The notes under the pieces were generated by a model. It saw only the letters and a list, made by a program, of their open reading frames with translations, did no database searches and was not told the origin of the DNA. Positions 6,121 through 46,530 of a stretch of 64,000 nt of DNA are shown here, one piece after another. The position numbers and the translations under genes are program-made. Source of the stretch: an uncultured Oscillospiraceae bacterium (GTDB lineage Bacteria > Bacillota > Clostridia > Oscillospirales > Oscillospiraceae); contig CAKUHB010000009.1 of the NCBI GenBank assembly GCA_934655875.1, positions 1 to 64,000 on the forward strand, read 5' to 3'. Positions within the stretch are counted from its first letter, which is position 1, and each line of letters begins with the position of its first letter.

Positions 6121-7068
6121 TTACTCGCGCTTTTTGTTTGCAAAGCTGTCAATGCCGACCGCAACAATCAGGATCACGCCGGTAATGGCATCCTGCCAGA
6201 AGCTCGACACGCCGGACAGCTGCAAAATATTCAGGATGATACCCATAATCATTGTGCCGATGATACAGCCGCCGATGGAGCCGACACCGCCATCCAGCGA
6301 GGTTCCGCCGACGATGCACGCCGACATGACCTTCAACTCATATCCGTCCATGCCATCGGCTGTACACATCAGGATCCGGAGCGTGTAAACCAGCGCGCCG
6401 ATCGAAGCGAACAGGCCACTGATCACAAGCGCCAGCGTCTTGATCACATCAACGTTTACGCCGGACAGCCACGCGGCACGCTTGTTGCCGCCGGTCGCAT
6501 AGATATACTGGCCGAAGCGGGTCTTTCGGAGAATGTACGCCATGACGAGCGCCAGCACGAGCCAGATCAGCGCCGGTACGGGGATCACACCGGCGATCTT
6601 TCCCATGCCGATGATATTAAATGCCCTTGGTATGCCGGTGATCGGCTTTGCGCCGGTAATAATGTAGACAAGGCCACGGACAGATGTCTGTGTGCCGAGC
6701 GTCGTAACGAACGGGTTGATGCCGATTTTTGTTACCAGGAAGCCGTTGATCAGGCCGATCACGATACCGGTCAGAAGTCCGACCAGAATACCGGGCACAA
6801 AGCCGTATTTTACAAACATCATCGTGGACAGGACGCCGGTCAGCGCGCCAGTCGACGAGACAGACATATCAAACGAGCCTGTGACCAATGCGAACACCAT
6901 GCCGAGCGCCATGATGCCGACAATGGCATTCTGCGCAAGCAGATTCATCAGATTGGACAAAGAGAGGAACAAGGGGTTAATGATTACGCTGACCAGCATC
7001 ATGGCTGCAAGCACGATCAGCATGGTCAGTTCTTTGGACTTCAAGATTGGATTCTTTTTTCGCTCCAC
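6121..7068 (-). CDS. ABC transporter permease (ribose/monosaccharide type)
   Basis: 315 aa, polytopic hydrophobic, RbsC-like. It sits between the ATPase and the binding-protein gene. Confidence 0.85.
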   Translation of the reverse strand: MERKKNPILKSKELTMLIVLAAMMLVSVIINPLFLSLSNLMNLLAQNAIVGIMALGMVFALVTGSFDMSVSSTGALTGVLSTMMFVKYGFVPGILVGLLTGIVIGLINGFLVTKIGINPFVTTLGTQTSVRGLVYIITGAKPITGIPRAFNIIGMGKIAGVIPVPALIWLVLALVMAYILRKTRFGQYIYATGGNKRAAWLSGVNVDVIKTLALVISGLFASIGALVYTLRILMCTADGMDGYELKVMSACIVGGTSLDGGVGSIGGCIIGTMIMGIILNILQLSGVSSFWQDAITGVILIVAVGIDSFANKKRE

Positions 7069-7171: not shown

Positions 7172-8227
7172 TTACCAGGCAACATCGTAATCCTCGCAGT
7201 TTTCCGCGGTCACGATCGGAAGATCGATTGCAGTCAATGCTTCAAATTTTGCGTCCGGGTTCGTAAAGTACTCGTAAACGACCTCCGCTGCCTTCTGGCC
7301 CTGGATTGCGGGGGACTGGTTTACAGTCGCGTAAATATTGCCCGCCAGGATCCCTTCCTTTACGTAGGACGGGTAATCAAACGCAGTGATCTTGCCGAGC
7401 AGCTCTGTGCGTCCGGCTTCGATGCAGGCTTCCGCCACGCCGACGGCATCGTCCGGGCCCTGTGTGATGACAGCGTCGATCTCGCCGGCCTGGAACTTCG
7501 TGAGCATGTTCTGCGCGACCTGAATGGCGGTTGCCTTATCCCAGTCGCTGTTCTGTTCGAAAACAACCTCGATCTCGGGATAGTCCTTCAGATACTCATA
7601 AAAACCTTCGCTCTCCTGCACTTGCGGGCCGGAGCCGAGCGTACCGAGCAGATATGCGATCTTGCCCTTGCCGCCGGTCAGTTCCACTGCCAGCTGCGCT
7701 TCCAGACGACCGGCTTCGACGCAGTCCATGTTGACCTCCGTGATGATGTCAGCACCTTCGCCAAGGGAACGGTTGATGACAACAACGGGAATGTTGGCCT
7801 CATTGCATTCCTGCACGACGGGAACCAGAGAGTTGGACTGGGCCGGAACCAGAATAATCAGATCCTTGCCCTGCGTGATGAAGTTTTCAACGATGGTCGT
7901 CTGCGTAACAGGGTCATCCTTGCCATCCTGCGTGTCTACGTTGAAGCAGCCGTATGCTTCCAGTGCTTCCACGCACTCGTTCATGATGGCGACCTGGAAC
8001 GGCGTGCCGAAATTCGCGCAGCAATAGCCGATCTCCCAGACCTTATCGCTGGTGGCTTCAGCGTCGCTGGTGGCTTCGGCGTCGCTGGCAGCCTGTTCCG
8101 CTACGTCAGTGGTGTCGGTGGGTGTTGCCGCGGTGTCAGCAGGGGTCTGATCGGGGGTGGCTGCACAACCTGTCAGCAGTGCAAATACGAGGATGAGTGC
8201 AAGAGCGAGTGCCAAGATTTTTTTCAT
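7172..8227 (-). CDS. Sugar ABC transporter substrate-binding lipoprotein
   Basis: 351 aa with a signal peptide and lipobox (LLTGCAAT). A low-complexity T/D/A-rich linker precedes a periplasmic-binding-protein fold resembling RbsB/LacI-type binding proteins. Confidence 0.8.
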   Translation of the reverse strand: MKKILALALALILVFALLTGCAATPDQTPADTAATPTDTTDVAEQAASDAEATSDAEATSDKVWEIGYCCANFGTPFQVAIMNECVEALEAYGCFNVDTQDGKDDPVTQTTIVENFITQGKDLIILVPAQSNSLVPVVQECNEANIPVVVINRSLGEGADIITEVNMDCVEAGRLEAQLAVELTGGKGKIAYLLGTLGSGPQVQESEGFYEYLKDYPEIEVVFEQNSDWDKATAIQVAQNMLTKFQAGEIDAVITQGPDDAVGVAEACIEAGRTELLGKITAFDYPSYVKEGILAGNIYATVNQSPAIQGQKAAEVVYEYFTNPDAKFEALTAIDLPIVTAENCEDYDVAW

Positions 8228-11759: not shown

Positions 11760-11798
11760 ATGCGTGCGCATTTCGTGCCAACTTGGAGCGCAGCTGCA

Positions 11799-11830
11799 AC
11801 CTCCGCATCGAAAGATGCGGAGGTTTTTTG
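11799..11830 (+). terminator. Rho-independent terminator after the gntR-family gene
   Basis: The hairpin acctccgcatc-gaaa-gatgcggaggt is followed by TTTTTT. Confidence 0.65.
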
Positions 11831-11944: not shown

Positions 11945-11973
11945 TTGCAATCAGAATACATTTGTATTACGAT
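11945..11973 (+). promoter_or_regulatory. Putative promoter of the RHH-TIR/RCC1 operon (-35 TTGCAA, 17-bp spacer, -10 TACGAT)
   Basis: This is the only reasonable sigma-A-like pair in the 11831-11996 region, followed by the RBS AAAGGAG at 11981-11987. Confidence 0.3.
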
Positions 11974-11996: not shown

Positions 11997-12188
11997 TTGG
12001 TGGAACCGCGTTTGGAGATTCCGGCGAAGAAATACACCGGCGAATCCGCAGTGATTTCCATGCGATTGCCGCGGGATATGCTGCTGGAAATCGACACAAT
12101 CGCAGCCGATACGGGTCGGACAAGAAATGAAGTTTTAACACTCTGCATGGAGTTCGCATTGAACCATCTCGATAAGGAATCGAAATAA
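11997..12188 (+). CDS. Ribbon-helix-helix (CopG/Arc-like) DNA-binding protein, putative operon regulator
   Basis: 63 aa. The beta-strand ISMRLPRDML is followed by two helices (LEIDTIAADTGRTRNEVLTLCMEFAL). TTG or GTG start 10-13 nt after AAGGAG; the start codon is uncertain. Confidence 0.55.
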   Translation: MVEPRLEIPAKKYTGESAVISMRLPRDMLLEIDTIAADTGRTRNEVLTLCMEFALNHLDKESK

Positions 12189-12209: not shown

Positions 12210-15200
12210 ATGGCGATGATCAAGTGCAAGATGTGCGGCGGGGATTTAAACGTCGAAGAAAACAGCCAGATCGCAGTCTGCGAATACTGCGGGACGCAGC
12301 AGACCGTTCCGAAGCAGGATAACGAGAAGAAGCTGACGCTGTTTGCGCGTGCAAACCGGCTGCGCTTTGCCTGCGAATTTGATAAGGCGGCGGGCGTTTA
12401 TGAGTCCATCGTGGCGGAGTTCCCGGAGGAGGCGGAAGCCTATTGGGGGCTTGTGCTCTGCAAATACGGTATTGAATACGTTGACGATCCGGCGACGGGT
12501 AAAAAGGTTCCGACCTGCCACCGGTCGAGCTTTGACAGCGTTCTGGAGGACGCGAACTTTGAGCTGGTCATGGAATACGCCGACGTAGTCACGCGGAAGC
12601 TTTACCGCGAGGAAGCCAAGGCCATCGAGGAGCTGCGGCGCAGGATCATCGAGGTCTCCAGCCGTGAAGAGCCGTATGACATTTTCATCTGCTATAAAGA
12701 GACGGACGAAAACGGCCAGCGGACACTCGATTCCGTCCTGGCGCAGGATTTATATGACGCGCTGACGGAAAAGGGCTACCGGGTATTTTTCTCCCGCATT
12801 ACGCTGGAGGACAAGCTCGGGCAGGAATACGAGCCGTATATCTTCGCCGCGCTCAACTCCGCGCGCGTCATGCTGGCCGTCGGGACGGACTATGAGTATT
12901 TTAACGCCCCGTGGGTCAAGAACGAGTGGAGCCGGTATTTGCAGCGCATCGCCGCCGGGCAGAAGAAATCGCTCATCCCGTGCTATAAAAATATCGACGC
13001 CTACGACATGCCGAAGGAATTTGCAAAGCTGCAGGCACAGGATCTCGGCAAGGTCGGTGCAACGCAGGATCTACTGCGCGGGATCGACAAGCTGCTGGGG
13101 AAAACAAGCACTCCCGCGGTTCCGGTGCAGCCCGCTCCGATGCAGGCTGCTGCTGCGCCGAATGTTGATTCGCTTCTTCGCCGCGGCAATCTGTTTCTGG
13201 AGGACCGCGACTGGACGAACGCAAAAACCTACTTCGATAAGGTTCTGGATATCGTTCCGGAGTGCGGCGCGGCGTATCTGGGGAAATTTCTTGCTGCAAA
13301 GAAGGCAAAAACGGTCGCGTCGTTTGTCCGGCGCTATGTGGAAGACATTGCGGCCCATGCACCGGCGCGCACCCGGCAGGATGCCTGCAAGCCGGACGAG
13401 ACATTCATCGCTGCCTGTCTCAATAAGTATCAGGTGCCGGAATATCTGGACGCACGCGAAATCCGGTCTCTGCTGCGCTTCGATCTTACGTATCATGCCG
13501 GGCTTGCAGACTATTATCACGACTGCTTCCTGCGCGCGGCGCAGATGCTTGGCAGCGAAAAGGACTTTGTCCGTGCTGAAAAGTATGCTGACGCGGATGT
13601 GCAGACGCAATGCGAGCTGCTGCGCAGCAAAATCCTGAACGATCTTCATGCCCGGCAGCAGGCCGCGGAGCAGGAGGAAGCCGGCGAAAAGCAGCGCATC
13701 ACGGAAGCCTATCATACATTTTTAAAGGAAACCGAATCAACGCTCGCCGCACGGCAGAAGGAAGCGCTTGAAAAGAAGAAAGCGCATGACAAGCTCGCGG
13801 AACGGCTGCGGTTGGAACGGGAAAAGCACGAAAAAGCGGCAGCAATCGAGCGGGAAAAGCAGGAAAAGCTGAGAAAAATCGCCGAGCAGGAGGCAAAACA
13901 AAAGGCCGCAAAGGCCCGGAAGCTCACGATCATCGGCGGCACTGCGGCAGCTGTCATCCTCGCAGCCGTGTTGATCATTACAAAGGTCATGATTCCGTCG
14001 CAGAAATATGCCAACGCCGCAGCGCTGCTGGATGCCGGAAACTATGATGACGCCATTTCAGCCTTTGCCGCATTGGGCGAGTATAAGGATTCTGCTGCCA
14101 TGTGCAGCAGCGCCGCGCACGCAAAAGCCTATGCGGAAGCGGAAACACTGCTGGCCGCCGGAGATTATAAGGGCGCGAGCGCCGCATTCGCTGCATTGCA
14201 GGATTATAAGGACGCGGCAAGCCGCGCAGATGCCGCAAGAAGCCAGCAGCTTGAAGCGGAAAACGCACAGGCCTATGCAAATGCGGAAGCACTGCTGGAT
14301 GCCGGAAACTATGCTGCCGCTGCCAAGGCGTTCCAAGCACTCGGCGACTACAAGGACGCGGCAGAGCGTGCGCAGGACTGCCCGTACATAGAAGCCGAGC
14401 AGCTTCTGGCGCAGGGAAAAACCGCAGAAGCCTCCATTGCGTTTGGAAGAATTGCCGGATATAAGGATGCGCTGGAGCGGAGCTTTGCGCTGAGAGCTTC
14501 CAGCGATCCTACAATTATTGCGAAGGACGATCATATCGTTGCGCTGAAAGAGGACGGTACTGTAGTCGCCATCGGCAATAACGAGTATGGGCAATGCGAT
14601 GTTGCCGACTGGACGAATCTTGTGGCAATCGATGCAGGATTCCTCTATACGGTCGGCCTGAAAGCGGATGGGACTGTGCTTGCTGTGGGCTATAACGATG
14701 ATGGCCGATGCAATGTTTCCGATTGGACGGACATCACAGCGATCCGCGCCGGCAGCTATCACACGGTCGGCCTGAAAACAAATGGAACCGTCGTTGCTGT
14801 AGGAGACAACGACTTGGGTCAATGCGATGTTGCCGACTGGACAGATATTACTGCCATCAGTGCCAGAGAGCATCACACGGTCGGTCTCAAGGCAGATGGC
14901 ACGGTAGTCGCCGTGGGCTATAACAGGTTTGGCCAATGCGATGTTTCCGGCTGGACGGATATCGTGGCGATCAGCACGGGGTATAATCACACGGTCGGCC
15001 TGAAAGCAGACGGAACGGTGGTCGCCGCAGGAAATAACGAGGATGGACAATGCGATGTATCTGATTGGACAGATATTGTAGCAATCAAGGCAGCATACAA
15101 ACACACAGTCGGCTTGAAATCGGACGGAACCGTGGTCGCTGTTGGTTTTAATGAATATGGTCAGTGTGACGTTTCAGATTGGACAGATATGATAGCAATT

Positions 15201-15434
15201 GATGCAGCAACTTATCACACGGTTGGTCTGAAAGCGGATGGAACCGTCGTTGCCACAGGAAATAATGGCGATGGGCAATGCAATGTCTCCGATTGGACAG
15301 ATATCGTTGCGGTGAACGCTGGTGGGTGGAATACCGTCGGCCTGAAAGCAGACGGTACCGTGGTCGTTGTTGGCGGTAACGTCGATGACAAGTGCAATGC
15401 TTCCGGCTGGACGGATATCAGGCTCCCCAACTGA
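12210..15434 (+). CDS. Zinc-ribbon / TIR-domain / TPR / single-TM / RCC1-like beta-propeller protein, paralog 1
   Basis: 1074 aa with these regions: an N-terminal CxxC..CxxC ribbon (KCKMCGG…CEYCG); a TIR-like region (DIFICYKETD…GYRVFFSRITLED…APWVKNEWSRYL) carrying the W-x-x-N-E catalytic-Glu motif; TPR-like helices; an E/K/Q-rich coiled coil; a TM helix (LTIIGGTAAAVILAAVLIITKVMIP) with positive residues on its N side; four ~40-aa repeats (A.ALL.AG.Y..A..AF.ALG.YKDA); and about eight RCC1-like blades (HTVGLKADGTVVAVG.N..GQCDVSDWTDI). It ends in IRLPN. Confidence 0.85.
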   Translation: MAMIKCKMCGGDLNVEENSQIAVCEYCGTQQTVPKQDNEKKLTLFARANRLRFACEFDKAAGVYESIVAEFPEEAEAYWGLVLCKYGIEYVDDPATGKKVPTCHRSSFDSVLEDANFELVMEYADVVTRKLYREEAKAIEELRRRIIEVSSREEPYDIFICYKETDENGQRTLDSVLAQDLYDALTEKGYRVFFSRITLEDKLGQEYEPYIFAALNSARVMLAVGTDYEYFNAPWVKNEWSRYLQRIAAGQKKSLIPCYKNIDAYDMPKEFAKLQAQDLGKVGATQDLLRGIDKLLGKTSTPAVPVQPAPMQAAAAPNVDSLLRRGNLFLEDRDWTNAKTYFDKVLDIVPECGAAYLGKFLAAKKAKTVASFVRRYVEDIAAHAPARTRQDACKPDETFIAACLNKYQVPEYLDAREIRSLLRFDLTYHAGLADYYHDCFLRAAQMLGSEKDFVRAEKYADADVQTQCELLRSKILNDLHARQQAAEQEEAGEKQRITEAYHTFLKETESTLAARQKEALEKKKAHDKLAERLRLEREKHEKAAAIEREKQEKLRKIAEQEAKQKAAKARKLTIIGGTAAAVILAAVLIITKVMIPSQKYANAAALLDAGNYDDAISAFAALGEYKDSAAMCSSAAHAKAYAEAETLLAAGDYKGASAAFAALQDYKDAASRADAARSQQLEAENAQAYANAEALLDAGNYAAAAKAFQALGDYKDAAERAQDCPYIEAEQLLAQGKTAEASIAFGRIAGYKDALERSFALRASSDPTIIAKDDHIVALKEDGTVVAIGNNEYGQCDVADWTNLVAIDAGFLYTVGLKADGTVLAVGYNDDGRCNVSDWTDITAIRAGSYHTVGLKTNGTVVAVGDNDLGQCDVADWTDITAISAREHHTVGLKADGTVVAVGYNRFGQCDVSGWTDIVAISTGYNHTVGLKADGTVVAAGNNEDGQCDVSDWTDIVAIKAAYKHTVGLKSDGTVVAVGFNEYGQCDVSDWTDMIAIDAATYHTVGLKADGTVVATGNNGDGQCNVSDWTDIVAVNAGGWNTVGLKADGTVVVVGGNVDDKCNASGWTDIRLPN

Positions 15435-15455
15435 CGAAGAAAGAAGGACGAGAAG

Positions 15456-18400
15456 ATGGCAATTATTAAATGTAAGATGTGCGGCGGGGATATTGAGATC
15501 TCTGCGGACAAGACGTTTGGGACGTGCGAATACTGCGGCAGCACGATGACGCTGCCCAAAGTGGACGACGAGCAGCGGGCGGCGGCGTTTAACCGCGGCA
15601 ATCACTTTAGGCGCAGCGGCGAGTTTGACAAGGCGCTGGCCGTGTATGAGCGAATCGTTGCCGAGGACGACAACGACGCCGAAGCGCACTGGTGCTGCGC
15701 GCTGTGCCGGTTCGGCATTGAATATGTGGAGGATCCGGCGACGTATGAATGGCTGCCGACGTGCCACCGCGCGAGCTTCGACAGCTTCTTGGAGGACGTG
15801 GACTATCTGGCTGCGGTCGCGCATTCCGACGGCATCACCCGCCGCCAGTACCAGAAGGACGCAGCGAAAATCGCCGAGGTGCAGCGCGGGATTCTCGCCA
15901 CGTCGCAGAACGAGCAGCCGTTCGACGTCTTCCTCTGCTACAAGGAGACCGGCGAGGACGGCCAGCGCACGCGCGACAGCCTGATGGCGCAGGAGGTCTA
16001 TTACGAACTGACCGAGCAGGGCTACCGCGTATTCTTCGCGCGCATCACGCTGGAAGATAAAGCGGGCGCGGAATATGAACCGTATATCTTTGCGGCGCTG
16101 AACTCCGCGAAGGTCATGGTCGTGATCGGCACGAAGCCGGAGCATTTTAACGCCGTCTGGGTCAAGAACGAATGGAGCCGCTTCCTGTCCATGATGAAAA
16201 AGGATCGGAGCAAGCTGCTCCTGCCGTGCTACCGGGACATGGATCCGTATGACCTGCCGGAAGCACTGTCGGTGCTGCAAAGCTATGACATGAGCAAGAT
16301 CGGCTTCATGCAGGATCTGATCCGCGGCGTCAAAAAGGTGCTCGACGCGGGCAAACCGCAGGAGGCTGCGAAAGAAACGGTCAAGGAGACCGTCGTGGTA
16401 CATAACGAGGGCGGCAGCAACGTGCAGGCCCTGCTCAAGCGCGGCAACATGGCGCTGGAGGACGGCGAATGGAGCAAGGCAGACGAGTTCTTTGAGCAGG
16501 TACTCAATCAGGACGCGGAGTGCGGCGCGGCGTATCTGGGGAAGTTTTTGAGCAGCAGAAAAGCAAAAAGCGTGCAGGCGTATTTGCAGAGCTGTTGCAA
16601 AAGAATAGCAAGCAACGCGCCGACCGCACAAAAGAGCAGCGCCTGTGAGGAAGACAGCGCGTTTATCGATGCCTGCGTGAAAAAGTATCAGGTGCCGGAC
16701 TATTACACCCCGGAGGACATTCACAAGGCGCTTACCCATGACCGGCTCTACTGCGCGGATCGCGCGGCGTATTTCCGCGAAGCGCAGAAGGAGTTCAATC
16801 AAGCACTGAGCGCCGACCGGAACTTTGTCCGCGCGGAAAAATTCGCCGACAGCGAAACAAAAGCGCAGTGCGGCACACTGCGCAGCGAGACCATGACTCT
16901 CCTGCGTCAGCAGGAGCAGCAGGCAGAGCAGGAAGCGGCTGCGGAAAAGCAGCGCGTTACCGAGGCCTATCACGCGTTCTTGCGCGAGACTGAGCCAAAG
17001 CTGGCCGAGAAACAGAAGCAAGGTCTTGCGAAGCAGGAAGAGGATCAAAAACGCAAGGAGGAATTTGAACGCCTGCGCGCGGAACAGAAAAAGCGTGCAG
17101 AGGAAGCAGAGAAACTCGCCGCACAGGAAGCAGCGCTAAAGGCTGCAAAGGCAGCAAAGGCGAAAAAGCTTACGCTTATCTGTGCTGCGGTGGCTGCTGC
17201 TGTCATTGCGGTGGTGTTGATCGTCACTCAAGTCATCATCCCATCTGCAAACTATTCCAAGGCTGAGAAGCTGCTGACTGCTGGCGATTATGACAGCGCA
17301 ATCACGGCATTCGCAGCTCTAGGCAATTACAAGGACGCAGCGGAGAAGATTACGCAGGCAAAAGAGCAGAAAGAAAACGAGCGTCTTGCCAAAGAAGCAG
17401 CTGAGGAGGAAGCCAGAAACGCGCAGGCATATGCCGATGCAGAAGCGCTGCTGGCAAGCGGGGATTACGACGGTGCTATCGCTGCTTTTACAGATCTGGG
17501 CGAGTATCAGGATGCTGCCGACCGGGTAAAGGCCATAGAAGCACAGAAAGCCGAGGAAAAAGCCAAAAAGGTGGAAGCGAAAAATGCGCAGGCATATCAG
17601 GAAGCGGTTTCTCTGCTGGAAAGCGGTAATTATTCAAAAGCGTCTGACGCATTTGCTAAACTTGGCAGCTACAAAGATGCGGCTATTCGGCGGAAAGAGT
17701 GCCAGTATCAAATGGCCGACCAGCTTCAAAATGATGGCGATACTGCTGCCGCTGCGGTAACGTTTGGGAAAGCCTGTGGATTCAACGACGCAAAAGAGCG
17801 TAGTCTGGCACTCTGGAATGTCATTGCCAAAAGAGATGTTATTGCGGCAAGCTGGGGATACACCGTTGGAGTGAAAGCAGATGGGACAGTTGTTGCAACC
17901 GGTGAAAATGATGACGGGCAATGCAATGTATCCAAATGGAAAGATATTATCGCCGTAGCAGCTGGATACGGGCACACGGTCGGCTTGAAGGCAGATGGGA
18001 CCGTGGTCGCTACCGGAAATAATGATGATGGTCAATGCAACGTGTCCGGTTGGAGCAACATTGTCGCAGTTGCAGCAGGATCCAGCCACACAGTTGGTCT
18101 GAAAATTGACGGAACTGTTGTTACCGCTGGCAGCACCATATGCGGTGAATCTAATTGGAGCGATATTATTTCTATAGCAGCCAACACCATTGTGACAGTT
18201 GGTCTGAAAACAGACGGGACAGTAGTTGACAAACCTTCTTGGTATAGCATTACCGCAGTGGCAGCCGGCGGCGTACACACAGTTGGGCTTAAAATGGACG
18301 GAACAGTTATTGCCACTGGCAGCAACGACCATCGGCAATGCAACGTATCTGACTGGAATAATATTATCGCGGTGGCAGCAGGCACCGACCACACTGTTGC

Positions 18401-18608
18401 AGTGAAATCAAATGGCACTGTTGTTGCCGCCGGTGAGAACGAAGATGGTCAGTGCAATGTATCTGGTTGGAGTAGTATCATTGCCGTGGCAGCAGGGTTC
18501 GACCACACTGTTGGCTTGAAGTCAGACGGAACTGTCGTTGCGGCCGGTGATAATTATTACGGTCAATGCAACGTTTCCAACTGGAAGAACATCAAGCTCC
18601 CCAATTGA
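15456..18608 (+). CDS. Zinc-ribbon / TIR / TPR / TM / RCC1-like protein, paralog 2
   Basis: 1050 aa with the same architecture. TIR motifs FDVFLCYKETGEDGQRT…VWVKNEWSRFL. TM helix LTLICAAVAAAVIAVVLIVTQVII. The RCC1 blades run to the C-terminus, which ends NIKLPN. The 22-bp junction with paralog 1 (gaaagaaggacgagaagATGGCAATTAT) is near-identical to the next junction. Confidence 0.85.
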   Translation: MAIIKCKMCGGDIEISADKTFGTCEYCGSTMTLPKVDDEQRAAAFNRGNHFRRSGEFDKALAVYERIVAEDDNDAEAHWCCALCRFGIEYVEDPATYEWLPTCHRASFDSFLEDVDYLAAVAHSDGITRRQYQKDAAKIAEVQRGILATSQNEQPFDVFLCYKETGEDGQRTRDSLMAQEVYYELTEQGYRVFFARITLEDKAGAEYEPYIFAALNSAKVMVVIGTKPEHFNAVWVKNEWSRFLSMMKKDRSKLLLPCYRDMDPYDLPEALSVLQSYDMSKIGFMQDLIRGVKKVLDAGKPQEAAKETVKETVVVHNEGGSNVQALLKRGNMALEDGEWSKADEFFEQVLNQDAECGAAYLGKFLSSRKAKSVQAYLQSCCKRIASNAPTAQKSSACEEDSAFIDACVKKYQVPDYYTPEDIHKALTHDRLYCADRAAYFREAQKEFNQALSADRNFVRAEKFADSETKAQCGTLRSETMTLLRQQEQQAEQEAAAEKQRVTEAYHAFLRETEPKLAEKQKQGLAKQEEDQKRKEEFERLRAEQKKRAEEAEKLAAQEAALKAAKAAKAKKLTLICAAVAAAVIAVVLIVTQVIIPSANYSKAEKLLTAGDYDSAITAFAALGNYKDAAEKITQAKEQKENERLAKEAAEEEARNAQAYADAEALLASGDYDGAIAAFTDLGEYQDAADRVKAIEAQKAEEKAKKVEAKNAQAYQEAVSLLESGNYSKASDAFAKLGSYKDAAIRRKECQYQMADQLQNDGDTAAAAVTFGKACGFNDAKERSLALWNVIAKRDVIAASWGYTVGVKADGTVVATGENDDGQCNVSKWKDIIAVAAGYGHTVGLKADGTVVATGNNDDGQCNVSGWSNIVAVAAGSSHTVGLKIDGTVVTAGSTICGESNWSDIISIAANTIVTVGLKTDGTVVDKPSWYSITAVAAGGVHTVGLKMDGTVIATGSNDHRQCNVSDWNNIIAVAAGTDHTVAVKSNGTVVAAGENEDGQCNVSGWSSIIAVAAGFDHTVGLKSDGTVVAAGDNYYGQCNVSNWKNIKLPN

Positions 18609-18629
18609 TAGAGAAAGAAGGACGAGAAG

Positions 18630-21458
18630 ATGGCAATTATGAAATGTAAGATGTGCGGCGGGGATATTGAGATCTCGGCGGACAAGACCTTCGGAACGTG
18701 TGAATACTGCGGCAGCACGATGACGCTGCCGAAGACGGATGACGACCAGCGGCTGAGCTTATTCAACCGCGGCACGCATCTGCGGCGCAACGGTGAATTT
18801 GACAAGGCTGCGGCGATCTATGAGCGGCTGATCGGTGAGAACGACGCGGACGCGGAAGCGCACTGGAACCTGCTGCTCTGCCGGTACGGCATCGAGTATG
18901 TGCAGGATCCGGCCTCCGGCGAGCGTATCCCGACCTGCCACCGCGCGAGCTTTGACAGCATTCTGAACGATGTGGACTATCAGGCCGCGCTGCAATACTC
19001 CGACGGCGTGGCGCGGAGCCTGTATGAAAAGGAAGCGCAGCGCATTGCTGCGCTGCAAAGGGACATTCTGGCGATCTCGCAGAAGGAATCGCCGTTCGAC
19101 GTGTTCATCTGCTACAAAGAATCCGACGAGAACGGCAGGCGCACGAAGGATTCCGCGCTGGCGCAGGATATTTACTACCAGCTCACCGACGCGGGCTATA
19201 AGGTCTTCTTCGCGCGCATCACGCTGGAGGATAAGCTCGGACAGGAATACGAGCCGTATATCTTTGCCGCCCTGCACTCGGCAAAGGTCATGGTTGTGGT
19301 CGGCACGAAGCCGGAATACCTGAACGCTGTCTGGGTCAAAAACGAGTGGAGCCGGTATCTCGCGCTCATGCGCACCGACCGCAGCCGCCTGCTCATCCCC
19401 TGCTACCGCGATATGGATCCGTATGATATGCCGGAAGAGCTCAGCATGCTGCAAAGTCAGGACATGGGGCGGATCGGGTTCATTCAGGATCTCATCCGCG
19501 GCGTCAGAAAAGTCGTAGACGCGGCAAAGCCGCAGCCGGAGCAGCCGTCCGCCGCGGCGGACGCCGGGACGAAGACCGCGCCGCTCCTGCGCCGCGGCAC
19601 GCTCTTTCTGGAGGACGGCGACTGGGCCAACGCAAACCAGTATTTTGAAAAGGTGCTGGACGCCGCGCCGGAGTGCGCGGAAGCGTATCTCGGAAAATTC
19701 CTCGCGCAGAATCACGCAAAGTCCGCCGCGGACTATGCAAACGCCCGTCTTGCGGACATTGTCAGGCACGCGCCGTCCATCAAAAACACGGACGCGTGCG
19801 CGGCGGACGGTGCATTTATCTCCGCCTGCACAGAAAAATATCAGGTCGACGGATATCTGAGCAGTCAGGAGATCACCAGAATGCTTTCCGCCTTTGACCG
19901 GCAGTATTGCAGTCAGGCGGCCTATTACCGCACCGCGGCGGAGACGGCAAGAAGCGAACTGGACACAGACCGCAATCTGACCCGCGCCCGGCAGTTCGGC
20001 TCGGACAAGACCCGCGCCCAATGCCAGAGCATCTGCGACAGCCTGTTCGGCCCGCTGGCGGAAAAGCTCCGCCAGTGCGAAGAGGAAGACGCCCGCCAGG
20101 CGCGCAGCATCCGCGAGGACTACGCCGCCTTTCTGAAAAAGGCGGAGGAAAAAGTCACCGCACGCTCCGAGCAGCTGCGGCAGAAAGAAGCACAGGCACA
20201 GCTCGAGCAGGAGCGGCAGCAGCGCGAAGCGGAGGAAGCGGAGCGCCAGCGCCGTCTGGAGGAGCTTCACCAGCTGGCAAAGGCCCGCCGGAAACAGACG
20301 GCCAAAAAGATCGCCAGGGGCGCGGTCGTTGCCGGGCTGCTGCTGGCCGCGGCTCTCAGCTTTTTGAAGTTTGCGAACCGGAAGTATGATCAGGCGGTGG
20401 CGCTCGCCGCGGAGGGCAGCTATGCGCAGGCCGCGGAAGCGTTCGACGAGCTGAAAACCTACAGAGACAGCAAGGAGCAGTTCGCGGAGAACATGCGTCT
20501 GGCCGGAGAAGCGTATCTGGCGTCGGGCGAGACGGCGCGCGCCGCCATGTGCTACGCAAAGATCGGCGATCCGGAAAGCATGGAAAAAAGCTATGCGCTG
20601 TGGGACACGGTCGCGGTGCGGAAGACGATCTCCGTCGGATATAACTACACCGCCGCGTTGAAAGACGACGGCACGGTCGTATTTACCGACAGGCACGCGT
20701 TTGACTCCTCGCCCGCGGGCTGGCACGACATCATCGCGATCGCCTGCGGCGACGACCATCTGCTCGGCCTGCGGGCAGACGGCAGCGTCTGCGCAGCCGG
20801 ACGGAATACAAAAGGCGAATGCGACGTTTCCGACTGGAAAAACATCGTGGCGATTGCCGCAGGGATGGACTACTCGGTCGGCCTGCGGGCGGACGGAACG
20901 GTCGTCACGGCTGGACGGAAGGACAATGGCAACCACAAGACCGGCGACTGGACAGATATCGTAGCGATCGACGCCAAGAGCCTACAGGCCGTCGCCCTGA
21001 AAGCGGACGGAACCGTGATCATGACCGGGGATACGGATAGTGAGAAGACGCTGGTGGAAAGCTGGACGGATATCAAGGCGATCTCGGCCGGATGGTTCCA
21101 CACGGTCGGGATCAAGCAGGACGGAACAGTCGTTGCGGCGGGACATGACACCGATGGTGCCTGCGACGTCGGCAGCTGGAGCAATATCTGCGCAGCGGTC
21201 GGCGGCGGAAGCACAAAGTTTGACTACACGATCGGTCTGCGGACGGACGGCACGCTGGTCGTGACGCGTCCGGAAAGCGTGGAAGCCGGCTCCGCACGTG
21301 ACATTGCCGGCTGGAGCAGCATTGTCGCAGTTGCGACAGGCACAGATACGGAAAAGCTCACCCTTGGTCTGCGGTCGGACGGCACGGTCGTCGCCGTGGG
21401 CGATACGGACGGCATTGATCTGAGCGAATGGACAAATATCAAGCTCCCAAACAGATAA
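18630..21458 (+). CDS. Zinc-ribbon / TIR / TPR / TM / divergent RCC1-like protein, paralog 3
   Basis: 942 aa. The N-terminal ~300 aa are about 80-90% identical to paralog 2 at the start. TIR motifs FDVFICYKESDENGRRT…VWVKNEWSRYL. TM helix VVAGLLLAAALSFLKFA. There are fewer YKDA repeats, and the propeller blades are degenerate (several lack the GQC motif). It ends NIKLPNR. Confidence 0.85.
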   Translation: MAIMKCKMCGGDIEISADKTFGTCEYCGSTMTLPKTDDDQRLSLFNRGTHLRRNGEFDKAAAIYERLIGENDADAEAHWNLLLCRYGIEYVQDPASGERIPTCHRASFDSILNDVDYQAALQYSDGVARSLYEKEAQRIAALQRDILAISQKESPFDVFICYKESDENGRRTKDSALAQDIYYQLTDAGYKVFFARITLEDKLGQEYEPYIFAALHSAKVMVVVGTKPEYLNAVWVKNEWSRYLALMRTDRSRLLIPCYRDMDPYDMPEELSMLQSQDMGRIGFIQDLIRGVRKVVDAAKPQPEQPSAAADAGTKTAPLLRRGTLFLEDGDWANANQYFEKVLDAAPECAEAYLGKFLAQNHAKSAADYANARLADIVRHAPSIKNTDACAADGAFISACTEKYQVDGYLSSQEITRMLSAFDRQYCSQAAYYRTAAETARSELDTDRNLTRARQFGSDKTRAQCQSICDSLFGPLAEKLRQCEEEDARQARSIREDYAAFLKKAEEKVTARSEQLRQKEAQAQLEQERQQREAEEAERQRRLEELHQLAKARRKQTAKKIARGAVVAGLLLAAALSFLKFANRKYDQAVALAAEGSYAQAAEAFDELKTYRDSKEQFAENMRLAGEAYLASGETARAAMCYAKIGDPESMEKSYALWDTVAVRKTISVGYNYTAALKDDGTVVFTDRHAFDSSPAGWHDIIAIACGDDHLLGLRADGSVCAAGRNTKGECDVSDWKNIVAIAAGMDYSVGLRADGTVVTAGRKDNGNHKTGDWTDIVAIDAKSLQAVALKADGTVIMTGDTDSEKTLVESWTDIKAISAGWFHTVGIKQDGTVVAAGHDTDGACDVGSWSNICAAVGGGSTKFDYTIGLRTDGTLVVTRPESVEAGSARDIAGWSSIVAVATGTDTEKLTLGLRSDGTVVAVGDTDGIDLSEWTNIKLPNR

Positions 21459-21473
21459 GAGAGGAAGAACGCA

Positions 21474-23333
21474 ATGAGCAAATTTGTAATTGAATGCCCC
21501 AAATGCGGGAAATACGCCGAAGCCAGCACCGGCCTGTTTGCAAAACGGAGGATCCCCTGCACGTGCGGGCACGCCATCGACGTGCGTACGGAACGGCTCG
21601 CGACCCGCGAATGCCCGCACTGCGGCAATACCGTCCTCTATGACCAGTCCAAGGGCGAAAAGGCGCTCTGCCCCGTCTGCCATACGCCGGTCAACACGAC
21701 GGCCCTTCAGCTCAAGACCGTGGAATTTTCCTGCGCGCAGTGCGGCATCCAGCTGCACGCGAGCAAGGCGGATACGACCTGCATCTGCCCCGTCTGCGGC
21801 TGCGAGAACGACGTGGAGCAGCGCGTCACGACCGACCGGATCAAAAAGGACGGTCTTGCCAGCATCATCAAATACGAGGGCGACAACGAGACCTTCGTCT
21901 GGAAGCACCCGATCGAGGACTTCAACTTCGGCTCGCAGCTGATCGTCCATGAGAGTCAGGAAGCGATCTTCTTCCGCGACGGGCAGGCACTCGACCTCTT
22001 CGGCGCGGGCCGCTACACGCTGCAAACGCAGCAGCTGCCGCTGCTGGAGAAGATCTACAAGCTCCCGACCGACACCGAGGGCACGTTCCATTCCGAGGTC
22101 TATTTCATCAACCTCGCCACCCAGATGGGCGTCAAATGGGGCACGGACAGCAAAGTCCGGATGTTTGACCCTGCGTCCCACCTGCCGATCGAGATCGGCG
22201 CGTCGGGCGAATTTAATATCCGCGTGACCGACTCGCGCAAGCTTCTTTTGAAGGTCGTCGGCACGACGGGCGGGCTTGGGCAGGAGCAGCTGCTGGGCAT
22301 CGGGAACGGCAAGGGCTTCTTCCGCTCGATGGTCATGACGCAGGTGAAAAGCTACCTTGCGCAGACGATCAAGGAAAACGCCATCGACATTCTGGAGATC
22401 GACGAGCACCTCATGGCGCTCTCCGGCGCGCTGCGCGAGCGGATCAACGCCGCGCTGGATGAATACGGCCTGACGATGCCGGAATTTTACGTCAGCCGTA
22501 TCGTAACGCCGGACGACGACCCCAATTTCCGCCGCATGAAGGAGCAGCACGCCGAGCAGTATCTGCTCGTCCGGCAGGAGAACATCCGCAAAGCCGAAGC
22601 CGAAGCCGCGGCAGGCCGCAAGGCGGTCGAAGCGCAGACGGCTGCCCACCTGAAGATCATCGGCGCGCAGGGCGACGCGGAAGCACTCAAGATCCAGAAG
22701 CAGGCCGAAGCCGAAGCCTATCGCATGCAGGCCGAAGCCGAAGCCGCCGAAATGCACATGAAGGGCTACAGCTATCAGCAGGAGTCCGCCCGGCAGGTCG
22801 GTCTGGAAGCGATGAAAAATGGCCTTGGCGGCGGCGCGAATGCTGCGGGCGCGCTGGGCGATCTCGCGGGGCTTGGTGTAAGTCTTGGCGCAATGGGCAG
22901 TGTCATCGGCATGACGAAGGATGCGCTGAACCCCATGACGCAGGACGCCGCGCAGATGGGCGCGGCCGTCGGTGCAGCCGGCACAGGCGGCTGGGACTGC
23001 CCGGCGTGCGGACACAAAAACATCACCACGAACTTCTGCCCCGACTGCGGCGGCAAAAAGCCCGAAGCAAAAACCGGCTGGGACTGCGCACAGTGCGGCA
23101 CAAAGAACATCCAGAGCAGATTCTGCCCGAACTGCGGCGCAAAGAAGCCGGAGGAGCCGAAGGGCTGGATCTGCCCGGACTGCGGCACGAAAGATATCAC
23201 GACGAACTTCTGCCCCAACTGCGGCACGAAGAAGCCGGAGGCGCCAAAGGGCTGGATCTGCCCGGACTGCGGCACGAAGGATATCATGACGAACTTCTGC
23301 CCGAACTGCGGACGGAAGAAGGAGGAGACATAA
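21474..23333 (+). CDS. SPFH/band-7 (YdjI-like) protein with three N-terminal and four C-terminal zinc ribbons
   Basis: 619 aa. N-terminal CPKCG…CTCGH, CPHCGN…CPVCH and CAQCG…CPVCGC ribbons precede a central SPFH-like domain (…FVWKHPIEDFNFGSQLIVHESQEAIFFRDGQALD…) and an A/E/Q-rich coiled coil. Four tandem 29-aa repeats GW(D/I)CP.CG.K.I...FCP.CG.KKPE, about 87 bp each, make up the 22985-23330 DNA region. Confidence 0.8.
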   Translation: MSKFVIECPKCGKYAEASTGLFAKRRIPCTCGHAIDVRTERLATRECPHCGNTVLYDQSKGEKALCPVCHTPVNTTALQLKTVEFSCAQCGIQLHASKADTTCICPVCGCENDVEQRVTTDRIKKDGLASIIKYEGDNETFVWKHPIEDFNFGSQLIVHESQEAIFFRDGQALDLFGAGRYTLQTQQLPLLEKIYKLPTDTEGTFHSEVYFINLATQMGVKWGTDSKVRMFDPASHLPIEIGASGEFNIRVTDSRKLLLKVVGTTGGLGQEQLLGIGNGKGFFRSMVMTQVKSYLAQTIKENAIDILEIDEHLMALSGALRERINAALDEYGLTMPEFYVSRIVTPDDDPNFRRMKEQHAEQYLLVRQENIRKAEAEAAAGRKAVEAQTAAHLKIIGAQGDAEALKIQKQAEAEAYRMQAEAEAAEMHMKGYSYQQESARQVGLEAMKNGLGGGANAAGALGDLAGLGVSLGAMGSVIGMTKDALNPMTQDAAQMGAAVGAAGTGGWDCPACGHKNITTNFCPDCGGKKPEAKTGWDCAQCGTKNIQSRFCPNCGAKKPEEPKGWICPDCGTKDITTNFCPNCGTKKPEAPKGWICPDCGTKDIMTNFCPNCGRKKEET

Positions 23334-25010
23334 ATGGCGGCAAAGCTGGAATGTGAAATCTGCGGCGGCAAGCTGATCGGCAAGCCCGGCGGCATCTTCG
23401 AGTGCGATTCCTGCGGCATGGAGTATTCCACCGAATGGGCCAAGGCCAAAATTCAGGAAATCAAAGGCACGGTCAAGGTCGAGGGCACGGTCGAGGTCAC
23501 CGGCAAGGTACAGGTCGAAGGCGGCACAGTGCAGGTCGAGGGCGCGGTGACAAAAGAGAGTCTTCTCAAGCGCGCGGAGATGTGCTGCGCGGAGAAGGAC
23601 TGGGGCAAAGCAAAGGCGCTGATTGAACAGGTTCTGAATATCGACCCGGAGTGCGGCGAAGCGTATCTGACCTCGGTGATGGTAGAGCGGGTCATGCAGT
23701 CAAAAGAAGACCTCCACGCATACTGCACCAACGCCATCCTTCCTCTGCCGCAAGGGAAAAACATGGAGCGCGCACAGCAGTTCCTGCCGGAGCTTTTTGC
23801 ACAATGGAAAGAAGAAAAAGAGCGCAACTACGCAGCGTATCTTAAGAAATACGAGGAAAGCGGCGCAGCGCAGCTGCGTGCGCGCTATGCAAAGACAGAT
23901 GGACTGCTGGTCTGTGGGTATCCCGGCCTGCTCGGGATTCGAACAGACGGAACTGTTCTGGTATCGGCAACAGAAACGCGGGAGCCGGACGCCGCCGCGA
24001 TCCGGCAGTGGGATGAGATCACAACAATTGCTTGCGGCGTGAATCATACAGTTGGCCTTCGGGCAGACGGCACAGTCGTCGCCGTTGGAAAAAATGGTAG
24101 CGGCCAGTGCAATGTTGAGAAATGGCGAAACATCACAGCAATTGCTTGCGGCGGGAATCATACAGTTGGCCTTCGGGCAGACGGTACGGTCGTTGCTGTC
24201 GGAGCAAATGAAAATGGACAGTGCAATGTCAGGGACTGGCGGGACGTCACAGCAATTGCTTGCGGCGATAGCCATACGGCTGGTCTTCGGGCAGACGGTA
24301 CGGTCGTTGCAGCCGGATGCAATGAAGAGCAGTGCAATGCCATCAAGGGCTGGCGGGATATTACCGCAATCGCCTGTAGCGGATCCCATACCGTCGGTCT
24401 CCGGGCAGACGGCACAGCGGCTGCGACAGACTATCCGAATTGTGAAAACTGGCGCGACGTTGTCTCGCTTGTGTGCAATGGCGAGTATGGTCTGCGGAAG
24501 AACGGGACGCTTGCGCCGAGCTGGGGCAATCTGTGCTGCGGCTGGTCGGACATTATCGCCGTTTCGGGTTATGGCAGTCATATCTCCGCGCTGCGCAGCG
24601 ACGGAACGGTTATATGCGCTGGCGGCGGAGAAAGCCAAAAGTGGACGGATATCGTCAGCATTTGCAGCATCCTCGATAAGGTGTATGGCATACGGAAAGA
24701 CGGTACCGTCGTGGCGGCTGGCGAATCTCATAGAGATGTTTCCGGCTGGCGCTTATTTAACAGTATTGATACCTTGGAACAGGAGCGCACGAAAGGACTG
24801 GCACGTGCCCGGGCCGAACACCTTGCAAAGGAAAAGGCCAAAGCTGATCGCATCGCACAGAAAAAAGCAGAGCTTCAGGCTGAACGGGACGAACTGCAAG
24901 CAGAGCTTTCGCAGCTCAAGGGGCTGTTTTCCGGCAAGCGCCGAAAAGAAATTGAACTTCTGCTGACCGTCAACCGGTATGAGCTTCAGGAATTGGAGGA
25001 ACAGGCATGA
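23334..25010 (+). CDS. Soluble zinc-ribbon / TPR / RCC1-like repeat protein (no TIR, no TM)
   Basis: 558 aa with an N-terminal CEICGG…CDSCG ribbon, a (K/T)VEGTV repeat, one TPR-like unit, at least 7 RCC1-like blades (NHTVGLRADGTVVAVG.N..GQCNV..W.DITAIACG) and a C-terminal coiled coil. The start overlaps the preceding stop (TAAATGG). Confidence 0.8.
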   Translation: MAAKLECEICGGKLIGKPGGIFECDSCGMEYSTEWAKAKIQEIKGTVKVEGTVEVTGKVQVEGGTVQVEGAVTKESLLKRAEMCCAEKDWGKAKALIEQVLNIDPECGEAYLTSVMVERVMQSKEDLHAYCTNAILPLPQGKNMERAQQFLPELFAQWKEEKERNYAAYLKKYEESGAAQLRARYAKTDGLLVCGYPGLLGIRTDGTVLVSATETREPDAAAIRQWDEITTIACGVNHTVGLRADGTVVAVGKNGSGQCNVEKWRNITAIACGGNHTVGLRADGTVVAVGANENGQCNVRDWRDVTAIACGDSHTAGLRADGTVVAAGCNEEQCNAIKGWRDITAIACSGSHTVGLRADGTAAATDYPNCENWRDVVSLVCNGEYGLRKNGTLAPSWGNLCCGWSDIIAVSGYGSHISALRSDGTVICAGGGESQKWTDIVSICSILDKVYGIRKDGTVVAAGESHRDVSGWRLFNSIDTLEQERTKGLARARAEHLAKEKAKADRIAQKKAELQAERDELQAELSQLKGLFSGKRRKEIELLLTVNRYELQELEEQA

Positions 25011-25702
25011 AACAGGACAAAGGAAAAACCCAGACGCTTCTGATCCTCGCCATTGTGCTGGCGGCGTATCTGGTGCTGGCATTCGTGATCCCATTTGCAA
25101 AGACCGGCGTGTTCTGGCTGGCGCTGGTGTTTACGCTGGCGGCGTTCGGCTTGCAGCTGTATGTGATGAAGCTGTCGTTTACAAAGGGCAAGGACGCGCG
25201 AAGCAAGTTCTACGGCTTCCCGATTGCCCGCGTCGGCGCGGTGCACCTGATCGTGCAGCTCGTGCTGAGCTTCCTGTTCATGGCGCTCGCCGCATACTGC
25301 CCGGCATGGGTCGCCGCCGTCATCTTTGTGGTGCTGCTGGCCGCCGCTGCCGTCGGCGTTGTTGCGGCAGACGCAATGCGCGACGAGGTCGAGCGGCAGG
25401 ACGTGCAGCTCAAAACGGACGTGGCCGCCATGCGCACGCTGCAATCGCGCGCGGCAGCGCTGGTTGCCCGCTGCGAGGACGCGGCACTGCGGGCTGACGC
25501 GCAGAAGCTTTCGGACGCGTTCCGGTACAGCGATCCCGTGACAAATCCCGCAACGAGCGCCGCAGAGCACGAGCTTTCCGCCTGCATGGACGAGCTGGAG
25601 CGCGCCGCGCTTGACGGCGATGTTGAAAACGCAAAGACGCTGATCCGGCGCACCGCCGCCCAGCTCTCAGAGCGCAACCGCCTGTGCAAGCTGAATAAAT
25701 AA
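25007..25702 (+). CDS. Four-TM membrane protein with a C-terminal cytoplasmic helical domain (last gene of the operon)
   Basis: 231 aa with four hydrophobic helices in the first 130 aa followed by an A/R/D-rich helical tail. ATGA overlap with the upstream gene. Confidence 0.7.
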   Translation: MKQDKGKTQTLLILAIVLAAYLVLAFVIPFAKTGVFWLALVFTLAAFGLQLYVMKLSFTKGKDARSKFYGFPIARVGAVHLIVQLVLSFLFMALAAYCPAWVAAVIFVVLLAAAAVGVVAADAMRDEVERQDVQLKTDVAAMRTLQSRAAALVARCEDAALRADAQKLSDAFRYSDPVTNPATSAAEHELSACMDELERAALDGDVENAKTLIRRTAAQLSERNRLCKLNK

Positions 25703-46443: not shown

Positions 46444-46530
46444 TGGTGCCGGTGGCCGGACTCGAACCGGCACGCCATCGCTGGCGGTGGATTTTGAGTC
46501 CACTACGTCTACCAATTCCATCACACCGGC
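46444..46530 (-). tRNA. tRNA-Leu (anticodon CAA), CCA-encoded
   Basis: The reverse complement gccggtgtgatggaattggtagacgtagtggactCAAaatccaccgccagcgatggcgtgccggttcgagtccggccaccggcacca has a 7-bp acceptor stem, a D-arm with GG, the anticodon loop ctCAAaa, a long variable arm and a T-loop GGTTCGAGTCC. Confidence 0.88.

Follow-up and report, generated by a model that had tools for sequence, protein, structure and literature searches.

TIR domains are common to the immunity of animals, plants and bacteria, and the known bacterial TIR systems sense infection inside the cell. Here we describe a seven-gene operon in a 64,000-nucleotide stretch of DNA from an uncultured Oscillospiraceae bacterium (positions 1 to 64,000 of the forward strand of contig CAKUHB010000009.1, assembly GCA_934655875.1; this whole stretch is referred to as the window). 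Three tandem paralogues, P1, P2 and P3, encode TIR proteins with a large C-terminal head that is predicted to lie outside the cell. The order of the genes is a ribbon-helix-helix (RHH) regulator, P1, P2, P3, an SPFH protein of the Band_7_1 family, and two further proteins, G5 and G6, with gaps of 21, 21, 21, 15, 0 and -4 nt between them. Sensor-effector systems based on TIR domains are already known; the combination of TIR and SPFH proteins in one cassette is apparently undescribed, no account of it having been found in the literature, including a 2025 systematic survey of TIR systems, where absence is no proof.

The closest described proteins are those of the TIR defence systems (Thoeris ThsB, TIR-STING, SPARTA TIR-APAZ and AbTir) together with BtpA/TcpB. 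The window proteins resemble them in having a TIR_2 domain with a WxxxE motif and in their predicted fold, which these proteins match best, and the fusion or partnering of TIR with variable sensor parts is likewise shared with the defence systems. Unlike those systems, the window contains no ThsA-type effector, STING, Argonaute or cyclase partner; its TIR domain is preceded by a zinc ribbon and a helical domain at the N-terminus of a membrane protein that ends in a large head, and its constant partners are the SPFH protein, a protein with four transmembrane (TM) helices and the RHH regulator. In domain logic, a ligand-binding ectodomain built of repeats that is connected by one TM helix to a TIR domain in the cytoplasm, the predicted proteins parallel the animal Toll-like receptors, and a few relatives of the window proteins even have LRR heads. 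In contrast to the Toll-like receptors, however, the TIR domain is N-terminal (type II topology) and of a predicted catalytic type, the heads are RCC1-like and homology is limited to the TIR domain.

For the SPFH protein the nearest parallel is in Bacillus subtilis, where SamG, which has an N-terminal zinc ribbon and a TM helix, and the membrane protein SamH recruit the soluble SPFH protein SamI, which restrains these two membrane sensors. The PspA-SamGHI (YdjGHI) system and the window have in common a zinc-ribbon membrane protein, a second membrane protein and a soluble SPFH protein in which a low-complexity region is combined with zinc fingers at the C-terminus, a likeness of architecture only; the window cassette differs in having no PspA, and SamG, by the papers' descriptions, has neither a TIR domain nor a large head. 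SPFH cages such as HflK/C-FtsH and QmcA-YbbJ are similar in that the SPFH gene shares an operon with genes for membrane proteins, which the SPFH protein may surround or control, whereas the Band_7_1 protein of the window has no membrane anchor of its own, many zinc ribbons, no NfeD partner and no protease client. Sensors with C-type-lectin domains diversified by a diversity-generating retroelement (DGR) are known from STAND-NTPase or MoxR/vWA ternary systems of multicellular Proteobacteria and Cyanobacteria, and TIR domains are reported among the effector domains of DGR targets (Doré et al. 2024, PMC10907252; Kaur et al. 2020, PMC7159879). At four loci related to the window a DGR likewise rewrites the C-terminal DUF6273 head of a TIR protein. 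Unlike those sensors, the protein here is membrane-anchored, has no NTPase and belongs to Clostridia, and the RCC1 heads of the window are without a DGR.

All three TIR proteins have the same order of parts: zinc ribbon, helical domain, TIR domain, coiled coil, one TM helix, TPR-like YKDA repeats (the stalk) and RCC1-like propeller. They are positioned as follows:

12210-15434, forward strand: P1, 1074 aa, co-directional with P2 and P3; zinc ribbon 12210-12314, TIR domain 12681-13094, WVKNE motif 12912-12926, TM helix 13923-13979, propeller of about eight blades 14535-15431
15456-18608, forward strand: P2, 1050 aa; zinc ribbon 15456-15560, TIR domain 15927-16340, WVKNE motif 16158-16172, TM helix 17169-17225, propeller 17856-18605 with two degenerate blades
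18630-21458, forward strand: P3, 942 aa; zinc ribbon 18630-18734, TIR domain 19101-19514, WVKNE motif 19332-19346, TM helix 20310-20366, propeller 20634-21455; the stalk is short and the blades mostly lack GQC

The Pfam matches for P1, P2 and P3 are 48.4, 39.8 and 48.2 bits to TIR_2 (curated cut-off 28) and 183, 154 and 92 bits to RCC1_2 (cut-off 22), and TPR repeats were matched in each. Every copy begins with a CxxC…CxxC motif and has a single hydrophobic helix at residues ~561-590, flanked by five to six Lys or Arg residues on its N-terminal side and two to three on the other. Because the N-terminal flank is the one rich in Lys and Arg, the predicted topology is N-inside/C-outside. By this positive-inside rule and the types of domain in the head, the N-terminal module of about 300 residues that comprises the zinc ribbon, helical and TIR domains (the N-module) would be cytoplasmic and the head would be outside the cell.

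The AlphaFold2 (AF2) model of residues 1-340 of P2 (pLDDT 76) consists of a zinc-ribbon beta unit (residues 2-32), a helical domain with a beta hairpin (38-152) and an alpha/beta TIR fold (158-297) in which strands and helices alternate as in the flavodoxin-like TIR fold. Its best matches in the PDB, as found by Foldseek with a probability of 1.00 for the top TIR hits, are SARM1, flax L6/L7, RPP1, RPV1/RUN1, TIR-STING, SPARTA and AbTir. W235-V-K-N-E239 of P2 is aligned by phmmer to W-P-A-R-E of Brucella TcpB/BtpA. In BtpA, W213xxxE217 is the catalytic motif, and mutation of Glu217 to alanine (E217A) abolishes NAD+ depletion (PMC7188309). WVKNE is intact in P1, P2 and P3. Relatives were found at a minimum of 561 Clostridia loci, with one genome per species scanned; 80 loci were fetched from these, and 81 loci were scanned with hidden Markov models of the modules built from the window. 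WV[KR]NEW is kept in 121 out of 121 complete TIR domains at the 81 loci, and the zinc ribbon in all 120 family proteins with enough upstream sequence. Both the fold and the motif are consistent with the TIR domains of P1-P3 being of the catalytic NADase type, for which cleavage of NAD+ is predicted.

Between genomes the N-module is nearly constant, while the sequence that follows it is not. The comparison was made with genomes whose SPFH protein is 87-90% identical in amino acid sequence to that of the window, with 0.5-0.7 synonymous substitutions per site (dS) and a ratio of nonsynonymous (dN) to synonymous substitutions of 0.10-0.15. Orthologues of all three N-module types occur in these related genomes. 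Amino acid identity is 0.99 for the P2-type (dN/dS 0.009-0.015, dS 0.29-0.49), 0.90-0.94 for the P3-type (dN/dS ~0.05-0.06) and 0.90-0.93 for the P1-type (dN/dS ~0.03-0.04), the overall ranges for the orthologous N-modules being 0.009-0.064 for dN/dS and 0.29-0.73 for dS. At residue ~360 in the P2-type and residues ~281-300 in the P1- and P3-types there is a sharp breakpoint, past which identity is 0.15-0.6, dS is saturated and dN/dS is 0.14-0.76. For 117 full-length metagenome homologues the median identity to P2 is 0.99 in the zinc ribbon and helical part, 0.99 in the TIR domain, 0.96 in the linker, 0.67 in the middle region, 0.46 in the coiled coil, 0.43 in the TM helix, 0.40 in the YKDA stalk and 0.60 in the propeller. 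Strain-level variants (clusters at ≥90%) differ by no more than about 4%, evenly across the domains. Since the breakpoint is sharp and the strain variants are uniform, the variability is attributed to exchange of the whole C-terminal cassette and not to accelerated point substitution. The sequence beyond the breakpoint has a separate and much older ancestry, which points to cassette swapping. The original prediction, which was made from the sequence of this stretch, had proposed conserved signalling modules joined to hypervariable sensor modules under diversifying selection. A constant signalling module with a variable sensor is borne out by the comparison between genomes, though not by that of the three copies, and the propeller is not the most diverged part; diversifying selection by point mutation does not hold, with dN/dS below 1 and the strain-level variants uniform and little varied.

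The heads that are exchanged are of several kinds. Among 115 family proteins 48 have an RCC1 head; the other 67 include DUF6273 (46), BspA-type LRR_5 (4), LRR_8 (3), Flg_new (3) and RHS (1). Elsewhere the P1-type N-module is followed by a 4-TM tail (locus L083) or by a soluble coiled coil (L086). DUF6273 heads are targets of a DGR at four loci, where the gene for the TIR protein ends in ~125 nt that make up the variable region (VR), with the template repeat (TR) ~700 nt downstream, beside a reverse transcriptase (RT). Mismatches between VR and TR fall almost entirely at adenines of the template:

L043: VR 12446-12567, TR 13178-13299, RT 13423-14532; 18 of 19 mismatches at template adenines
L047: VR 6520-6646, TR 7213-7339; 24 of 26
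L056: VR 2676-2798, TR 3383-3505; 20 of 20
L074: VR 12424-12550, TR 13117-13243; 16 of 17

No A-biased repeat pair and no RT motif are present in the window.

The TIR genes are followed by the remaining members of the operon:

21474-23333, forward strand: SPFH/Band_7_1 gene, 619 aa, 126.3 bits to Band_7_1 (cut-off 24) and 26 bits to Band_7 (cut-off 23.6)
23334-25010, forward strand: G5 gene, 558 aa, with a zinc ribbon, GTVxVEG repeats, TPR, an RCC1-like propeller and a C-terminal coiled coil
25007-25702, forward strand: G6 gene, 231 aa, with four TM helices and then a cytosolic helical bundle

The SPFH protein has N-terminal zinc ribbons (five CxxC motifs), the SPFH domain at residues 149-348, a coiled coil, a Gly/Ala-rich low-complexity stretch and four C-terminal zinc ribbons (eight CxxC motifs), with no TM helix predicted. 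Compared with solved structures it gives a weak match to QmcA in the coiled-coil part (E=0.03) and matches in the zinc ribbons, and nothing else. The 3' end of its gene (22989-23327) is made up of 87-nt tandem units that are 70-73% identical; every unit encodes a single CxxC…CxxC zinc ribbon. G5 is an optional gene of the cassette and has neither a TIR domain nor a predicted TM helix, so that heads of the G5 type would be cytoplasmic. Its N-module (zinc ribbon and GTVxVEG) is near-identical across loci, carrying an RCC1 propeller in the window and in L085 (15374-17047) and a BspA-type LRR_5 head in L086 (8167-9348). G6, which regularly accompanies the SPFH gene, matches no family in Pfam, NCBIfam or PADLOC.

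Homologues of P2 with the same set of domains number more than 8000 and are unnamed; the 300-residue N-module alone has 3973 cluster representatives (50% identity) at E<=1e-30. With few exceptions, the 150 hits listed place it at or close to the N-terminus, in proteins of 310 to 1895 residues. The hosts include Acutalibacteraceae, Oscillospiraceae, Ruminococcus, Lachnospiraceae and Christensenellales of gut and rumen, with a few bins labelled otherwise. An SPFH gene is found beside the TIR genes in 52 of the 81 loci and a G6 gene after it in 48, almost always as an SPFH-G6 pair; where at least 4 kb is available on both sides, the SPFH gene is present in 22 of 28. One TIR gene was counted at 59 loci, two at 11, three at six, four at three, and five and six at one each, numbers that are lower bounds as the contigs are short. 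The conserved operon is thus made up of the RHH gene, the TIR proteins as a variable element of one to six copies, the SPFH/Band_7_1 protein, an optional zinc-ribbon protein with RCC1 or LRR and the 4-TM protein. No further conserved neighbour, PspA and effectors included, was found across the 81 loci, the apparent clusters being antisense shadow open reading frames (ORFs) or generic ABC ATPases. A phage origin was considered and rejected: the N-module is on only three of 2.9 million viral contigs (IMG/VR), each with a cellular cassette that includes the SPFH gene. What appears to be a remnant of the cassette, an LRR_5 gene and G6 without SPFH or TIR genes, lies between ABC-transporter operons at L092 (9202-10696).

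Between the TIR genes and the SPFH gene there is a variable accessory slot, which is empty in the window and occupied at related loci:

L091, 7220-8140: SIR2_2, 33.6 bits (cut-off 24.5), seen in only this one related cassette
L090, 7235-8143: DUF2971
L083, 12923-13387: 154-aa protein with a weak HEPN-like match
L086, 5585-6310: 241-aa protein of no recognised family
L085, 6390-6971: 193-aa protein with a coiled coil and a zinc ribbon

The L091 cassette is adjoined by an LlaJI-type restriction system and that of L090 by a relaxase (MobA), ParM and a serine recombinase. In a small and crude test of the flanks (131 genes from 36 loci, with no background set) integrases and resolvases were the commonest Pfam families, and the PADLOC hits included AbiLi/AbiLii, AriA, pAgo, LmuA and DolB.

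We consider that P1-P3 may be membrane sensors with a TIR NADase output gated by the SPFH protein, whose role would most likely be a conflict or defence response to phage or to surface insult; the chances of this are, in our judgement, about even. According to this proposal the TIR proteins would span the membrane with their heads outside, and the soluble, zinc-ribbon-rich SPFH protein would be held at the membrane by the 4-TM protein G6. By analogy with the action of SamI on SamG and SamH, it may organise or restrain the zinc-ribbon N-modules. Binding of a ligand or perturbation of the envelope would then release or cluster the TIR domains, and TIR-TIR assembly would lead to cleavage of NAD+, either as depletion or to give a signal nucleotide. 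A more specific form of the proposal, put forward tentatively, is that these are outside-in TIR receptors of bacteria: interchangeable extracellular heads, some of them diversified by DGRs, would recognise phage or foreign surface molecules and act through a single TM helix on a catalytic TIR domain gated by an SPFH cage that is anchored via the 4-TM protein, as a functional counterpart of the Toll-like receptors. If the function were confirmed, a widespread family of gut and rumen Clostridia (~4000 clusters at 50% identity) would extend the picture of TIR immunity, provide a first candidate for transmembrane TIR signalling in bacteria and give a testable role to the poorly understood Band_7_1 SPFH proteins. 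It would also offer a natural case of receptor diversification through cassette exchange and, as a novel class of immunity by surface sensing in gut Clostridia, would bear on phage-host dynamics in the gut microbiome and on phage therapy.

The immune role had already been suggested in the original prediction and is plausible though circumstantial, with the catalytic-type TIR domain, the DGR heads, the accessory genes and some defence or mobile islands in its favour. Several observations weigh against a defence sensor. The extreme conservation of the N-module is as compatible with a housekeeping role in signalling as with an effector role. PspA is absent from the cassette, none being found among the seven genes. 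G5 has a propeller and no TM helix, and with the soluble and 4-TM relatives of the P1-type this means that an extracellular head is not family-wide. The operon is flanked in the window by housekeeping genes (a GntR regulator, an aminotransferase, an ABC transporter and ATP synthase). Scans of the operon genes other than RHH against PADLOC and NCBIfam matched no defence system beyond weak hits at the level of the TIR domain: in PADLOC-DB v2 these were to PDC-S66 (~21-22 bits) in the TIR region of P1 and P3, with none for SPFH, G5 or G6, and in NCBIfam to ThcB4 (21 bits against a cut-off of 220). The association with defence islands, coming from a small and uncontrolled set of flanks, is suggestive, not decisive. 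Thoeris was rejected as an assignment, the scanned genes including no ThsA-type effector and neither database giving a Thoeris call.

The strongest competitor to a defence sensor is an envelope-stress or membrane-homeostasis module of the SamGHI type with no immune function, in which the zinc-ribbon proteins would sense the wall or membrane, the SPFH protein would act as a brake and the TIR domain would link to NAD metabolism or serve in oligomerisation alone. The logic of the components is the same: one membrane protein has a zinc ribbon at its N-terminus, another is polytopic, and the SPFH protein is soluble and bears C-terminal zinc fingers as well as a low-complexity region. Such a role would agree with the housekeeping flanks, with the extreme purifying selection on the N-module and with the near absence of the cassette from viral contigs. 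No conserved PspA or sigma-W-type partner accompanies the cassette, however, and the likeness of G6 to SamH is one of architecture. Swapped heads, a variable copy number and DGRs in some heads would be unusual in a housekeeping stress sensor, and the accessory genes (SIR2, DUF2971 and HEPN-like) and the defence or mobile neighbours at some loci also count against it. On balance we regard this explanation as rather unlikely.

Less probable still, and in our view doubtful, is that P1-P3 are surface adhesins or wall proteins whose variable heads bind glycans of host or dietary origin or other cells, with the TIR domain having a structural or assembly role and the link to SPFH reflecting the organisation of membrane microdomains alone. 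RCC1-like, BspA LRR, Flg_new and DUF6273/C-type-lectin-like heads are typical of Firmicute surface proteins, DGRs diversify adhesins too, and the gene just downstream of the operon encodes a VWA-Flg_new-SLH surface protein. Against this, the invariant WxxxE of the 121 TIR domains and an N-module dN/dS of 0.01-0.06 point to an intracellular function, enzymatic or in signalling, that is conserved, and some members of the family have no TM helix or no head.

Within the array the three copies are well diverged, with overall amino acid identities of 52% for P1/P2, 46% for P1/P3 and 52% for P2/P3. For the same pairs in that order the identities are 49, 50 and 71% in the zinc ribbon and helical part, 59, 64 and 74% in the TIR domain, 23, 15 and 30% in the linker, 44, 44 and 42% in the helical middle, 47, 30 and 30% in the coiled coil, 54, 35 and 31% in the YKDA stalk and 59, 45 and 50% in the propeller. 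The lowest conservation is therefore in the linker, helical middle, coiled coil/TM and stalk, with the propeller intermediate (45-59%). This differs from the original prediction, in which divergence was concentrated in the propeller; the linker (15-30%) and, in the pairs with P3, the stalk (30-35%) are lower. The 5' end of P1 had been described correctly as more diverged, the first 295 residues of P1 being 49-64% identical to those of P2 and P3, which are 71-74% identical to each other. P2 is closer to P3 in the N-terminal third and closer to P1 in the C-terminal half, and the similarity of P1 and P2 is at least as high in the C-terminal half as in the N-terminal half. Substitution rates between the copies were estimated by the method of Nei and Gojobori with our own script. 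In each domain of each pair dS is ~1 or higher and mostly saturated, with the exception of codons 1-35 of P2/P3, for which dN is 0.01 and dS 0.45. Because dS is saturated almost everywhere, the copies are old paralogues and do not come from a recent triplication, as the tandem triplication of the original prediction might suggest: P1, P2 and P3 are ancient paralogues with one short homogenised tract.

Differences between the copies in the number of repeats and the integrity of the blades were confirmed, with four, four and one to two YKDA-type repeats and seven, four and one G[QRE]C blade motifs in P1, P2 and P3. The blades of the propeller are periodic DNA repeats of 114 nt (38 aa) that are mutually 60-80% identical, and at this level of identity a recent expansion of blades was rejected.

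The near-identical gene junctions that had been reported are also present, both quoted strings being found as written. The spacers of P1/P2 and P2/P3 are 21 nt each and lie within two tracts that a repeat finder aligns over 186 nt at 87% identity:

15393-15578, forward strand: junction tract 1, in which the last codons of P1 (…IRLPN) are joined to ~40 codons at the start of P2 (zinc ribbon) through a 21-nt spacer containing a purine-rich ribosome-binding site (RBS)
18567-18752, forward strand: junction tract 2, in which the end of P2 (…IKLPN) is joined through a 21-nt spacer to ~40 codons at the start of P3

The core of the P2/P3 tract (~140 nt, about -35 to +105 from the ATG) is ~92-93% identical and spans the stop codon, the RBS and zinc-ribbon codons. 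The DNA identity of P2 and P3 is 0.68-0.75 across the remainder of the first 900 nt and 0.59 over the complete gene. The same pattern is seen between paralogues at other loci, where the identity of the first 105 nt and of the sequence that follows is 0.92 and 0.67 in L003, 0.95 and 0.59 in L062, and 0.91 and 0.59 in L079. As the tract covers the conserved C-terminal peptide I-K/R-L-P-N and the RBS, selection adds to its conservation. In the closest genome, an uncultured Clostridia metagenome-assembled genome (L003, 4073-10150), there are orthologues of P2 and P3 only, and the first gene has a P1-type leader and hybrid P1/P2 first codons. This is the pattern expected if P1 had been lost there, or gained in the lineage of the window, through recombination between the conserved 5' ends. 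The junction tract may thus be a hot spot of gene conversion or unequal crossover, which would account for the near-identity of the junctions as well as for the variation in copy number, and recombination at this 5' tract and at the breakpoint after the TIR domain would shuffle heads and alter the number of copies.

Collapse or expansion of the array during assembly was ruled out: two separate metagenome assemblies from ENA, which agree with the window at 100% identity over 23 kb and 6 kb, have the same three genes, and the paralogous copies share only ~60% DNA identity. A recent tandem triplication with copies diverging by positive selection focused on the propeller, for which the near-identical P1/P2 and P2/P3 junctions and the differing numbers of blades and repeats might be cited, is highly improbable given the dS values in all domains and pairs outside 35 codons, the separate orthologue lineage of each copy in other genomes, a propeller that is not the most diverged region, dN/dS below 1 and strain-level variation that is uniform across domains.

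On the reverse strand, long ORFs of 624-725 aa run antisense to the TIR and SPFH genes at 15174-17048, 18759-20936 and 20982-23015. Equivalent shadow ORFs opposite conserved sense genes recur in 71 loci, and it is very probable that they do not represent genes.

The operon is bounded by two terminator-like hairpins and begins with a short gene that had been overlooked in the original prediction:

11798-11825: terminator-like hairpin, ending the upstream GntR gene
11945-11973, forward strand: promoter-like site TTGCAA-17-TACGAT, a block nearly invariant in an alignment of the leader from four genomes
11955-11968: inverted repeat AATACAttTGTATT, between the hexamers TTGCAA and TACGAT
11997-12188, forward strand: RHH (CopG-like) gene, 63 aa, TTG start, GRTRNE motif, the first gene of the operon, 21 nt before P1
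25747-25781, forward strand: strong terminator-like hairpin with a 16-bp stem and a T-rich tail, ending the operon

The RHH protein matches Pfam RHH_1 with E=0.007, below the curated cut-off. Homologues are found in 30 of 93 loci, nearly all directly 5' of the first gene of the cassette, be it that of the TIR protein or of SPFH. It is possible that the inverted repeat AATACAttTGTATT is the operator for the RHH protein, within a putative promoter. An Rfam scan of the 5' leader gave no match.

Just past the terminator of the operon, at 25978-29919, is the gene for the 1313-aa VWA - Flg_new/InlB-repeat - SLH surface protein, whose SLH domains suggest that the host has an S-layer-type wall anchor. 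Elsewhere in the window, matches at the Rfam gathering level are an ssnA RNA motif at 52294-52341 on the forward strand (69.5 bits) and a tRNA at 46447-46530 on the reverse strand.

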